This document shows, one piece after another, positions 1,689 through 4,579 of a DNA stretch of 4,639 nucleotides. A program made the translations under genes and the position numbers. The notes beneath the pieces are model-generated. The model worked only from the letters and a program-made list of their open reading frames with translations. It ran no database searches and had not been told where the DNA came from. The stretch's first letter is position 1, and every line of letters starts with the position of its first letter. This stretch comes from a virus (Duplodnaviria > Heunggongvirae > Uroviricota > Caudoviricetes), in IMG/VR virus record IMGVR_UViG_2734482591_000017; one strand, given 5' to 3'.

Positions 1689-2543
1689 ATGAAACTGGAA
1701 GATTTACCGAAATACTACTCCCCAAAATCCCCTTGCCTGACCGATGCATCGGCCTCAACGTCAAAAGATGCGCTGAGTATCACTGATGTGATGGCCGCGC
1801 AGGGCATGACACAGAATCGGGCTGAGATGGGGTTTTCTGCGTTCCTGGGGAAAATGGGCATCAGTATGAATGACAGGGCGCGGGCAACAGAATTACTGGC
1901 AGATTATGCACTCAGTCGGTGCGATCGTGTGGCGGCGTTGAGAAAACTTCCGGCAGAAATAAAACCGGTAGTGATGCGCATTATGGCTTCGTACGCTTTT
2001 GAGGATTATGCCCGCAGCGCAGCGAGTAAAAAGCAGTGCCCTTGTTGCTATGGGGAAAAATTTATTGAAAGCGTAGTTTTTACAAACAAGGTCCAGTATC
2101 CGGATGGTAAGCCGCCGGTATGGGCAAAGTGTACGAAAGGTGTGTATCCGTCTTACTGGGAAGAATGGAAAAAAGTCAGGGAGGTGGTAAAAGTTGCCTG
2201 TCCGGAGTGTGGCGGAAAGGGTGAGGTTTCCACCGCCTGTAAGGATTGCCGTGGGCGTGGTGTCGCCATTCATCGTGAAGAGTCGGTAAAACGTGGTATG
2301 CCTGTTATCAGAGACTGCCAGCGTTGTGGTGGTCGTGGCTATGAAAGACTACCATCAACGGAGGCATTTAATGCTATATGCGAGGTGACAAACCAGATAA
2401 CACGCGCGTCATGGGAAAAAACAGTTAAGAAATTCTATGATGCGCTGGTGACTCGGTTTGATATTGAAGAAGCATGGGCTGAGCGGCAGTTAAAAAAGGT
2501 AACTAGGTTGATTTTTCCGGAATCTGTGGTAAATTCGTCATAA
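1689..2543 (+). CDS. Late-gene antiterminator Q-like protein (phage 82 / QuuQ-type) with DnaJ-like CxxCxGxG zinc-finger repeats; true start may lie in the N run
   Basis: First ATG after the gap (1689) gives a 284-aa ORF with repeated Cys motifs (CPCCYGEK, CPECGGKG, CKDCRGRG, CQRCGGRG). It lies downstream of rusA and immediately upstream of a promoter/terminator pair and phage tRNAs, the canonical Q position. Family assignment is from memory. Confidence 0.7.
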   Translation: MKLEDLPKYYSPKSPCLTDASASTSKDALSITDVMAAQGMTQNRAEMGFSAFLGKMGISMNDRARATELLADYALSRCDRVAALRKLPAEIKPVVMRIMASYAFEDYARSAASKKQCPCCYGEKFIESVVFTNKVQYPDGKPPVWAKCTKGVYPSYWEEWKKVREVVKVACPECGGKGEVSTACKDCRGRGVAIHREESVKRGMPVIRDCQRCGGRGYERLPSTEAFNAICEVTNQITRASWEKTVKKFYDALVTRFDIEEAWAERQLKKVTRLIFPESVVNSS

Positions 2544-2645: not shown

Positions 2646-2721
2646 GGCCCTTTAGCTCAGTGGTGAGAGCGAGCGACTCATAATCGCCAGGTCGCTGGTT
2701 CAAATCCAGCAAGGGCCACCA
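2646..2721 (+). tRNA. ileZ: tRNA-Ile2 (anticodon CAU, presumably lysidine-modified); ileX/ileZ-like
   Basis: 76 nt with 7-bp acceptor stem GGCCCTT/AAGGGCC, D-arm GCTC/GAGC, anticodon loop CU-CAU-AA, T-loop TTCAAAT, discriminator A and encoded CCA. Very close to E. coli ileX as I recall it, so Ile2 is preferred over Met. Confidence 0.85.
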
Positions 2722-3008: not shown

Positions 3009-3362
3009 TTGATTGAGTGTTTGTTATACGGTCTAATGGTTTTTTCAGCATTAAATATTTATCATTCATATGGTGTGGGTAGAGTGAATATTGATGAGGC
3101 GTCGGGGTGTTTCATCCTTAGGCAGCGTATTGATATAGTCAATGCAGCACGAGCAAAGGCCTTCAGCCGTTTGACAGTTTTGTTCTGTACTCCTGATCGT
3201 CTTTCGGGAAGAGACGTTATTATTCTGAATAGTGATGCTATACAGAGGGTTTGCGATGAGTTCATGGTTGCTAATTCAGAATTATTTGCTCTTGTTCAGG
3301 AGTACAACAGAATAGCCAGGACCTGTGGTATGGATGAACTTCGGATTACTCATCTGGGGTAG
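3009..3362 (+). CDS. Hypothetical protein, up to 117 aa; start ambiguous (TTG 3009, ATG 3036, GTG 3084), no convincing Shine-Dalgarno
   Basis: ORF track entry. It occupies the position of stxA in Stx phages but has no resemblance to Stx. Rare-codon rich (3 AGA, 3 AGG, 3 AUA). Could be non-coding or a decayed gene. Confidence 0.3.
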   Translation: MIECLLYGLMVFSALNIYHSYGVGRVNIDEASGCFILRQRIDIVNAARAKAFSRLTVLFCTPDRLSGRDVIILNSDAIQRVCDEFMVANSELFALVQEYNRIARTCGMDELRITHLG

Positions 3363-3442
3363 ATACATATCTGGATTATCACCTGTTACGGTAAAAAGTG
3401 ATTGCTTACTGTTTTTGTGAATGGCATTGCAGCAGCCGGATA

Positions 3443-3529
3443 ATGTCAGTGCTGGCTGACGGTGTGCTGGTGGCGGGTGTGGTGGTTGTTGCTTTCCCGT
3501 TGCTGAAAAAGAAAACGCCAGACTGTTAG
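3443..3529 (+). CDS. Candidate 28-aa hydrophobic mini-protein MSVLADGVLVAGVVVVAFPLLKKKTPDC (possible small membrane peptide); GTG 3398 would give 43 aa
   Basis: Read manually; below the ORF-track length cutoff. One predicted transmembrane-like stretch followed by KKK. Locally GC-rich codons (GTG/CTG/GGT) contrast with the AT-rich surroundings. Weak Shine-Dalgarno. Confidence 0.2.
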   Translation: MSVLADGVLVAGVVVVAFPLLKKKTPDC

Positions 3530-3670
3530 CCGGGTATCAGTTAGCGGGAGAAATTTTTAAATACTTCACAATTCAGGCGGTTGACTGTTGTCTGGTTTGC
3601 GGGGAGTTTGTTAAAAGAAACTGGCATGGTGAATCCCCCTGTGCGGAGGGGCAATCAGCGAGTAGGTATA

Positions 3671-3679
3671 TGGGATAAT
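3671..3679 (+). promoter_or_regulatory. Candidate extended -10 promoter element TGgGATAAT
   Basis: TG at 3671-3672, hexamer GATAAT at 3674-3679. No good -35. It would start a transcript of about 100 nt ending at the 3754-3790 terminator. Confidence 0.25.
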
Positions 3680-3753
3680 CGCGGATTCAGGTGCTGGTAC
3701 TGAATTCACCGGGAGGCACCCGGCACCATGCAATGGCACATAGCGCCACTCTC

Positions 3754-3790
3754 CAGCCCCTCTCCGGAGGGGCTGTTTATATTGATTTTG
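3754..3790 (+). terminator. Strong intrinsic (rho-independent) terminator, plus-strand orientation
   Basis: Perfect 9-bp GC-rich stem CAGCCCCTC / GAGGGGCTG (3754-3762 with 3767-3775), loop TCCG, then U-rich tail TTTATATTGATTTTG (3776-3790). Confidence 0.65.
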
Positions 3791-3807
3791 TCAGATGTGA
3801 GTAAACT

Positions 3808-3839
3808 CCTTATGGACTTTGTTGTTTTAGTCCATAAGG
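3808..3839 (-). repeat. Perfect 11-bp inverted repeat (hairpin) covering the stop codon and last codons of the minus-strand ORF
   Basis: CCTTATGGACT (3808-3818), 10-nt loop, AGTCCATAAGG (3829-3839). No clear U-tract follows on the minus strand, so it may be a 3' stabiliser or weak terminator. Confidence 0.45.
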
Positions 3840-4145
3840 ACATATTTGCAGAGTGCAACGGTTATTAAAGCATTCATTCAATACGTTATCTGTATTTGTA
3901 GGGCATTCCTGGCTATTTTTGATTGAATTCCAGAATGTTTTATTGAATGGTACTACGTTGTAAATGGTTACAGGTAGCACTTTGTTATTGAGCATGATGC
4001 CTGTGTGAGTCAGTGTAAATATACTTTCAGGAGGTAAGAAAGCATCCGATTGATACCAGATTATTAATTTTATTTTACTCCATATGACTGAAAAAGATAT
4101 TCCGCATGATGGCTGGATAACTGTATCAATCACAATCCACTTCAT
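3810..4145 (-). CDS. Hypothetical protein, 111 aa, antisense to the phage late operon; Trp/Ile/Asn-rich, no recognised family
   Basis: ORF track entry, verified codon by codon. ATG at 4145-4143 preceded by AAGGA with 6-nt spacing (plus-strand 4152-4156). Stop is TAA at 3812-3810. Six of its 13 Ile codons are AUA. Confidence 0.55.
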
Positions 4146-4212: not shown

Positions 4213-4405
4213 CCATAGAGCAGAATTATTTTTCTGATGTTGTTTATTGTTTATTTAAATGCAGGGTGGTTTATATCTCGTCTTGTAGTTTATCCATGCA
4301 TATCTGCTTGATAATCAGGTTTTTATTTAAGGTATGGTTTTGTGTTTTTTCTGTATTACATGTCAGGTATTTTAAAGAATTATTTTTCAGATGGTGGAAA
4401 GAACC

Positions 4406-4579
4406 ATGGCATTTAAACACTATGATGTTGTCAGGGCGGCGCCGCCGTCAGATCTTGCGGAAAAGCTGACACATAAACTGAAAGAGGGCTGGCAGCCGTT
4501 TGGTAGTCCGGTGGCCATAACCCCTTATACCCTGAGGTGTACTGGCAATAGCGGACACTACCATTTGTTCTTTTTTTAA
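4406..4579 (+). CDS. DUF1737-like small phage protein (57 aa from ATG 4406; ORF track starts at 4391), possibly the 5' part of a longer frameshifted gene
   Basis: MAFKHYDVVRAAPPSDLAEKLTHKLKEGWQPFGSP... matches the YDVVRA...LAEK...KLxEGWxPxG pattern I recall for DUF1737 proteins between Q and the lysis genes. GGTGGAAAG precedes the ATG. The ORF ends in TAA directly after a T7 run (4571-4577). Confidence 0.45.
   Translation: MAFKHYDVVRAAPPSDLAEKLTHKLKEGWQPFGSPVAITPYTLRCTGNSGHYHLFFF

Follow-up and report, generated by a model that had tools for sequence, protein, structure and literature searches.

What is encoded in a stretch of about 120 nucleotides that ends at an intrinsic terminator downstream of the antiterminator gene Q of a prophage? 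This question was raised by a 4,639-nt piece of viral DNA (IMG/VR record IMGVR_UViG_2734482591_000017; the whole of it is called the window here), for which a preliminary description had proposed, at positions 3671-3790, a structured small RNA of about 100 nt that starts near 3687 at an extended -10 element (TGgGATAAT), adding that the terminator could equally just end the preceding coding unit. According to our analysis, the plus strand between either ~3570 or 3624 and 3784 very likely constitutes a stand-alone small RNA (sRNA) gene of the STnc100 family with the same sequence as EcOnc05 of the Sakai prophage Sp4.

A prophage-borne small RNA of the STnc100 family

The window matches Rfam family RF02076 (STnc100) at 3595-3784 on the plus strand with 132.4 bits (E 5e-30) over the full model (positions 1-206), a score above the curated gathering score of 47 bits that, when reached over the whole model, defines membership of this family. 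The core helices and motifs of STnc100 (UGGUGAAUCCCC...GGGGC; CACCGGGAGGCACCCGGCACCA) are present in the window with all invariant columns kept. Since the match covers 3595-3784, the stretch that had been flagged represents the 3' half of a member of a known sRNA family. Moreover, positions 3566-3775 of the window recur without any difference in prophage Sp4 of E. coli O157:H7 Sakai (L245 716-925), the identity stopping within the terminator, and the northern probe used for EcOnc05 (AATCCGCGATTATCCCATATACCTACTCGCTGATT) is the exact reverse complement of 3653-3687 (Tree et al., 2014; PMC4104026, probe list and Table S2). EcOnc05 was described in Sakai as an orphan Hfq-CRAC peak that passed 5/5 filters, and its northern band has a size of ~222 nt (Tree et al., 2014). 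A northern blot and an Hfq association dataset, both of which had been proposed as checks of the small RNA, thus already exist for the exact sequence.

As an STnc100 member that carries the EcOnc05 sequence, and of which at least 80% of the locus is found in 2219 of 5426 complete E. coli genomes (at up to 12 places per genome, carriers including EAEC 042 and ST131 strains), the element is an already known, prophage-borne gene for an Hfq-binding small RNA. The supposed likeness to regulatory sRNAs from prophages of pathogenic E. coli was therefore correct, because the element is a homologue of Hfq-binding ones. The plus-strand gene also ends at the terminator that had been named and lies downstream of Q, but it is longer than had been proposed and starts further upstream. 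In a study on Shiga-toxin-producing E. coli and their outer membrane vesicles, RT-qPCR primers were used that match 3625-3644 and 3698-3717 exactly. Strain EDL933 carries 11 STnc100 copies, with transcriptome reads well above background for 10 of them and northern verification for one, and the RNAs of related loci have sizes of ~177 nt (EcOnc06), 172-187 nt (EcOnc13/PasD) and ~235/247 nt (EcOnc27), the 247-nt form of EcOnc27 being destabilised in a delta-hfq strain. RNAs of the STnc100 type are among the bacterial sRNAs annotated most often. What is new here is structural, namely a pseudoknot and a modular exchange of tails, while the remainder rediscovers a known element.

Table 1. Positions of features at the sRNA locus and in the surrounding late region, in window coordinates.
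Feature	Position	Strand	Remarks
Q antiterminator (PF03589)	1689-2543		Pfam
Terminator after Q	2583-2602, then TTTTTATT		strong
tRNA, anticodon CAT	2646-2721		ARAGORN
tRNA-Arg(UCU)	2822-2898
117-aa ORF	3009-3362	+	no Pfam or NCBIfam match
DUF3927 ORF	3398-3529		upstream neighbour of the sRNA
Candidate distal -10, TTAAAT	3557-3562	+	putative; start would be ~3569-3570
Upstream block TCACAATTCAG, TTGAC, GTTGTCTG, TTTGTTAAAAG	3566-3623	+	conserved in 15 subfamily members
Proximal promoter candidate	-35 TTGTCT 3588-3593; TG 3609-3610; -10 TAAAAG 3612-3617	+
Structured core	3624-3731	+	108 nt, conserved; Rfam alignment, covariation
Closing helix P1	3624-3631 / 3724-3731	+
Hairpin P2	within 3635-3651	+
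Three-pair helix P3	3651-3653 / 3680-3682	+	third pair mismatched in the window's subclass
Pseudoknot 5' strand, AUCAGCG	3654-3660	+	just after P2; pairs with P4 loop
Hairpin P4	3683-3690 / 3700-3707	+
Pseudoknot 3' strand, UGCUGGU	3692-3698	+	in P4 loop; includes the GGTGC segment of the preliminary description
Hairpin P5	3709-3713 / 3719-3723	+	CCGGG/AGGCA/CCCGG, loop AGGCA; essentially invariant in 82 variants
Variable 3' tail, AAUGGCACAUAGCGCCACUCUC	3732-3753	+	probable target-pairing (seed) region
Intrinsic terminator	3754-3784	+	stem-loop 3754-3775, U-rich tract 3776-3784
iraM homologue	3810-4145	-	NF007393, 162 bits; convergent to the sRNA
DUF1737 ORF	4391-4579		precedes the lysis genes

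A conserved core with a covarying pseudoknot

Scanning viral contigs with a long gapped motif pattern yielded more than 120 prophage or viral loci, from which 82 distinct core sequences were aligned (a scan of genome contigs with the 16-mer GCATGGTGAATCCYCC gave almost only chance matches in unrelated phyla and was abandoned). The full-length RNA folds with a minimum free energy of -69.5 kcal/mol (z -2.96). Across the 82 variants, 34 columns of the core are invariant, and 93.4% of the cells assigned to helices are paired, compared with 41-44% when the partners are slid; the covariation score of 0.283 was reached by 0 of 500 shuffles, and the slid controls did not exceed 0.072. The third pair of P1, for example, is A-U in 40 sequences and G-C in 36, and five pairs of P4 are changed on both sides across variants. 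The core is thus strongly structured and covarying, RNA folding and covariation across homologous prophages being among the checks that had been proposed. However, of the two complementary segments on which the preliminary description had based its fold, only one turned out to be a helix of the family. The segment CGGGAGGCACCCG (3710-3722) forms a real hairpin, which corresponds to P5 (3709-3723). The segments GGTGC and GCACC both exist and pair in the fold of a truncated 98-nt RNA, but their pairing is supported neither in the full-length fold nor in the family consensus, where GGUGC lies in the pseudoknotted hairpin loop and GCACC in the invariant hairpin and the closing helix; comparative support is lacking because CCGGCACC is constant across homologues in which the loop with GGUGC is free to vary.

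The loop of P4 instead pairs with a strand just downstream of P2. Among 51 distinct classes of strand and loop, 34 different helices of at least 5 bp were found (for example CCAGUC/GACUGG, CUGGUGU/ACACCGG, AAUGAC/GUCAUU and ACUGGAUA/UAUCCAGU). Since MAFFT shifts the 3' strand of the pseudoknot by one column in the subclass of the window, the pseudoknot was tested in an alignment-free manner, by permuting the loops among classes. The mean length of the complementary stretch was 6.08 with a strand's own loop and 4.19 with permuted loops, and 0 of 5000 permutations gave a value as high; an earlier control with 18-nt windows had been too noisy. Even on the MAFFT alignment 72% of the pseudoknot cells are paired, despite the mis-registration of the window's subclass. 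The pseudoknot appears neither in the structure line of the Rfam hit alignment nor in the 2026 preprint on PasD and STnc100.

These helices also bear on whether the locus might instead encode a small protein, in plus-strand ORFs at 3691-3804 or 3728-3868 or in a minus-strand ORF at 3611-3739. Such ORFs do exist, the ATG at 3728 is preceded at a distance of 10 nt by GGGAGG, an antisense ORF at the locus is called by RefSeq, and the EDL933 copy that carries 'tatgggata' has a ratio of ribosome footprints to transcripts of 3.2, which leaves a small chance of translation. Nevertheless, none of the three ORFs has a Pfam match, the ATG at 3728 lies within P1 and is replaced by ACA or ACG in other variants while the opposite strand changes in compensation, and substitutions generally follow the covariation of RNA helices rather than codons, so that translation of any of these ORFs as the function of the locus appears extremely unlikely. 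In RefSeq the RNA itself is unannotated, and the minus strand at 3611-3739, antisense to it, is listed as a hypothetical protein or as a partial pseudogene; this antisense ORF is probably a spurious gene call that extends across several thousand genomes.

The core is kept across highly divergent prophages with invariant sequence, at times in tandem arrays of three to five copies. Its 34 invariant positions, five closely packed helices and strongly covarying pseudoknot have led us to consider, tentatively, that the core might be a functional RNA module itself rather than just a passive scaffold; it could, for instance, serve as a platform to which a protein of host or phage binds, as a device for processing or stability, or as a sensor. 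If this possibility were true, prophages would graft interchangeable tails, each with seed and terminator, onto the module by recombination exactly at the end of P1.

Promoter candidates and the 5' end

The extended -10 element that had been taken as the start of a ~100-nt RNA does exist as TGGGATAAT at 3671-3679, but several lines of evidence argue against a role as promoter. It has one mismatch to TGnTATAAT and is accompanied by no -35 element, and its frequency is that of chance, since three near-matches to TGnTATAAT occur in the window where 4.37 +/- 2.03 are expected, and at least three were present in 167 of 200 shuffles. A two-hexamer promoter scan of the window did not list the motif. 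In the Rfam alignment its UAAU represents an insertion relative to the family consensus, and in the alignment of 82 variants it falls into a non-conserved linker between the pseudoknot strand and P3/P4 and is not kept beyond the closest subfamily.

A start near 3687 is further contradicted by the RNA that was detected for the identical sequence. The EcOnc05 probe site, within which the motif falls, lies entirely upstream of the proposed start, so the RNA includes the region before 3687; moreover its size of ~222 nt exceeds 100 nt, and the covarying core begins at 3624. With a start at 3687 half of every long-range helix would be missing, as P1, P2, P3, the pseudoknot and P4, all of them covarying, would be cut, and the region that was to pair with GGUGC never co-varies with it. 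In favor of such a short RNA are the correct spacing of the TG in the motif, the finding that 98 nt fold well on their own (-42.2 kcal/mol, z -3.54), and the position of the published probes, which lie mostly upstream of 3687 and would miss a minor short isoform. Weighing both sides, we regard a ~100-nt sRNA that starts at TGgGATAAT and folds through GGTGC/GCACC and CGGGAGGCACCCG as distinctly improbable.

For the STnc100-type RNA itself, two estimates of the 5' end differ by ~55 nt. From the size of the northern band we infer a start at ~3570, and from promoter conservation and the RNA-seq of PasD a start at 3624; both of these candidates contradict a start at 3687. In the first case, the TTAAAT hexamer at 3557-3562, which has counterparts 4-6 nt before the TCACAATTCAG box in Sakai Sp4 (TTAAAT) and in a Stx2 phage (TGTAAT), might act as a distal -10 element, although its -35 is poor; a start at ~3569-3570 would give an RNA of ~215 nt, which fits the EcOnc05 band. 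In the second case, transcription from the proximal promoter candidate would give an RNA of 161 nt. Other subfamilies, which have unrelated upstream DNA, all possess a TTGAC-like -35, a spacer of ~17 nt and an A/T-rich -10 that ends 5-8 nt before the core. Similarly, the 5' end of PasD1 in RNA-seq corresponds to the first G of GCAUGGUG, and the sizes of EcOnc06 (~177 nt) and EcOnc13 (~187 nt) are compatible with a start at helix P1. Because the northern size was obtained for the identical EcOnc05, ~3570 is kept as an equal or better candidate than 3624. The conserved block at 3566-3623 may accordingly be read, from its sequence, either as a transcribed leader or as a proximal promoter. Within this block a leader hairpin, CAGGC/GUCUG, seemed plausible by eye, but RNAalifold found no supported hairpin in 3566-3623 (-0.68 kcal/mol, no compensatory pairs).

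A band that exceeds the distance from core to terminator would also be expected if the stretch were the 3' untranslated region of DUF3927, with the terminator ending that mRNA and the small RNA arising by processing. No terminator-like site was found in 3216-3754, and therefore none lies between the DUF3927 ORF and the sRNA; read-through from DUF3927 would consequently also stop at the terminator at 3754-3784 and could supply part of the RNA. Likewise, PasD2 of EPEC and the gene before it were drawn under one bracket. The notion that the terminator ends the preceding coding unit is hence not exclusive of the presence of an sRNA gene. However, the identical RNA of Sakai Sp4 is still ~222 nt long even though it is preceded there by tRNA genes and a strong terminator instead of DUF3927. 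In addition, family members are situated behind unrelated upstream DNA with promoter-like hexamers at a fixed distance, and tandem arrays have one terminator per copy. An origin of the RNA by processing from the DUF3927 transcript is thus considered unlikely.

Terminator, variable tail and association with Hfq

The terminator is real, although the label 'textbook' that it had been given is slightly generous: its stem (3754-3775) comprises 9 pairs, 7 of them G-C, with a loop of 4, and is followed by TTTATATTGA, in which the U tract is interrupted. An intrinsic terminator with a 3' U tail (UUUAUAUUG), the feature associated with the proximal face of Hfq, is present with this interruption. The stem is reused by many family members. 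Between core and terminator lies a tail that is highly variable within the family: at least five unrelated tails, including one of the PasD type, are joined to near-identical cores exactly after P1. A hairpin with a T-run was identified in 65 of 76 distinct family tails, 26-99 nt (mostly 40-47 nt) after the core, while an obvious terminator is absent from the other 11.

Three sets of data place Hfq binding and target pairing in this 3' module. RIL-seq chimeras of PasD map to its last ~50 nt; the Hfq-CRAC peak of EcOnc27 spans P5, tail and terminator (positions were counted from stx2B, and AsxR served to check the coordinate shift); and the EcOnc05 peak corresponds to 3655-3763 of the window if the Sakai coordinates are unchanged at Sp4, as the probe position of EcOnc08/21 suggests. 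The tail at 3732-3753 is therefore probably the seed, as judged by analogy with these relatives. Targets have been suggested for relatives (fimZ and espA for sRNA103, and a complementarity to stxB) by indirect or in silico evidence.

Taken together, the gene would be transcribed in the lysogen by host RNA polymerase from its own promoter, and the transcript would end at the terminator. The RNA consists of two modules, a pseudoknotted multi-helix core of ~108 nt with invariant sequence and a short tail with terminator hairpin and U tract, the tail being swapped by recombination among members of the family. The 3' module is predicted to bind Hfq and would most likely pair in trans with mRNAs of host or prophage, as RIL-seq showed for the sibling PasD. 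By the same reasoning the variant in the window may regulate in trans, with the core contributing to stability or serving as a binding platform, and the terminator may in addition shield the lysis genes from read-through in the lysogen.

The layout of promoter, invariant pseudoknotted domain, variable linker and intrinsic terminator resembles that of a riboswitch, and the core might accordingly be an attenuator-like device that controls read-through into the late genes, with the 'sRNA' as a terminated by-product. The 34 invariant positions, among them whole stems, and the 11 of 76 tails with no obvious terminator would agree with such a control element. However, the next gene is the convergent iraM homologue, the next gene on the same strand is 600 nt away, and in a Stx2 phage and in Sakai Sp4 a convergent RNA follows; thus the window presents no same-strand gene directly under the terminator, nor a mutually exclusive pairing between aptamer and terminator. 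Furthermore, the exchange of tails takes place precisely at the P1 boundary, neither an antiterminator nor another conserved pairing that involves the terminator was seen, and RNAs that end at the terminator associate with Hfq and occur in chimeras with mRNAs. Control of downstream genes in cis is consequently very unlikely, and a stand-alone sRNA gene remains our preferred reading.

Location in the late region of a lambdoid prophage

ORFs, tRNA genes, Pfam matches and terminator calls identify the window as the late-region junction of a lambdoid prophage. The sRNA gene is situated in the cargo ('moron') region, with Q and tRNA genes on one side and the lysis genes on the other, a late location in lambdoid prophages that is a trait of the STnc100 family. 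The same arrangement occurs with 99.6% identity in E. coli 042 and many ST131 genomes, where it runs on into holin and lysozyme genes. When the RNA of the window was compared with phages by blastn, matches were obtained only in Escherichia, Shigella and Stx phages; more distant family members have only two short invariant blocks in common with it.

Several minor features of the surrounding DNA were recorded. Within 2500-2609, the strong terminator at 2583-2602 lies directly 3' of the Q stop codon (2543), at the site that PR' (the late promoter) and its terminator tR' occupy and from which the short RNA StxS is produced in Stx phages. The Rfam scan gave only a sub-threshold match to Trp_leader there, which reflects the terminator, and this weak match was dismissed together with one to Plastid-ycf2, whose source was the antisense strand of a tRNA. 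The tRNA with anticodon CAT is a Met tRNA according to ARAGORN, and its RefSeq annotation varies between Ile and Arg from genome to genome. Three tRNA genes (ileZ, argN, argO) are present at this site in Sakai Sp4 and Stx2 phages; the middle one is missing from the window, where a 100-nt spacer takes its place. The ORF at 3009-3362, which the annotation of E. coli 042 does not contain, is preceded by A/T-rich DNA that includes promoter-like hexamers (2964-2991). On the other side of the sRNA, the homologue of the anti-adaptor gene iraM fills the slot that in Sakai Sp4 and Stx2 phages is taken by a convergent Hfq-bound small RNA, and a 12-bp inverted repeat (3805-3838) overlaps its stop codon, with AAAACAACAA as the loop on the minus strand. 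Towards the start of the window, an insertion-sequence end of ~155 bp (caattgcgatcttttcctgtgtgg...ggccagtcta) is present twice (~387-542 and ~790-945), giving duplicated ORF starts within 1-950, and a run of 250 N bases (1427-1676) breaks the RusA/Q region; both look like features of assembly or scaffolding.

Comparison with known relatives

EcOnc05 in Sakai Sp4 has the same plus-strand orientation relative to Q and the tRNA genes and likewise resides in the cargo region before the lysis genes, but its surroundings differ. Its upstream neighbours are tRNA genes and a terminator, whereas DUF3927 precedes the sRNA in the window, and after the terminator stem Sp4 continues with ...GGGGCTTTCTTATGG and a convergent minus-strand Hfq-bound RNA, the window with ...GGGGCTGTTTATATTG and the iraM homologue. 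Salmonella STnc100, from the RF02076 seed, shares the covariance model and is also multi-copy and prophage-borne, while its linker, pseudoknot and tail sequences differ from those of the window.

PasD1 and PasD2 of EPEC E2348/69 (EcOnc13 type) share the 5' start GCAUGGUGAAUCC... with the window and, like the sRNA of the window, have a Q gene (PF03589) and a DUF3927 gene upstream. They are Hfq-dependent RNAs of 172-173 nt with a seed in the 3' part (Pearl Mizrahi, 2021; Zhu, Shabalina and Storz, 2026 preprint). In contrast to the window, PasD is devoid of the P5 hairpin (AGCGGGAGGCGCCAUGC), has a shorter P2 and a UGUGAG seed tail, and scores below the STnc100 gathering score. The UGUGAG seed with GGCUGCGCAUGGCGCGGCC terminator that characterizes PasD is not found in the window, whose tail and terminator differ, although other copies of this core do carry tails of the PasD type. 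The RNA of the window is hence a sibling of PasD and not a member.

The anti-sRNAs AsxR and AgvB (RF02703/RF02702) occupy the same cargo site, are modular too, and form convergent 'dyads' with STnc100-type RNAs. They measure 51-60 nt, are encoded on the opposite strand and combine a 5' seed that varies with a 3' end that is conserved, an arrangement that mirrors STnc100. Neither RF02703 nor RF02702 matched the window on any strand at E <= 1, while AsxR scores 88 bits beside STnc100 in a Stx2 phage.

In some prophage contigs (L127 2265-3380; L132 342-1038; L178 4349-5513 and 8357-8555), three to five STnc100 copies follow one another in tandem at distances of 180-330 nt. Each array copy that was inspected has a promoter-like region and a terminator, and a match to isrI abuts one of the L178 copies.

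EcOnc27 of Sakai (sRNA103 of EDL933), an Hfq-binding, northern-verified RNA encoded downstream of stx2B in Stx2 phages, belongs to the same Rfam family (207.7 bits) and has the same core and upstream TCACAATTCAG...TTTGTTAAAA block as the window. It differs in tail and terminator (AGUAUACAGAGAUUAGGCAUAUACCAAGGCC...) as well as in linker and pseudoknot sequences, and its convergent partner is the anti-sRNA AsxR, absent from the window; the effects on fimZ and espA that were reported for sRNA103 need not apply to the variant in the window. This sibling copy directly behind stx2 overlaps polymorphisms that predict haemolytic uraemic syndrome (HUS). The HUS-associated polymorphisms +90 (T/C) and +103 (T deletion) map, within 2 nt, to ~2545 and ~2558 of Stx2 phage II (L243) and, as counted from the stx2B stop codon, fall in TTTGTTAAAAAAATTTC, directly 5' of the STnc100/EcOnc27 core, where a putative proximal -10 element and discriminator are located.
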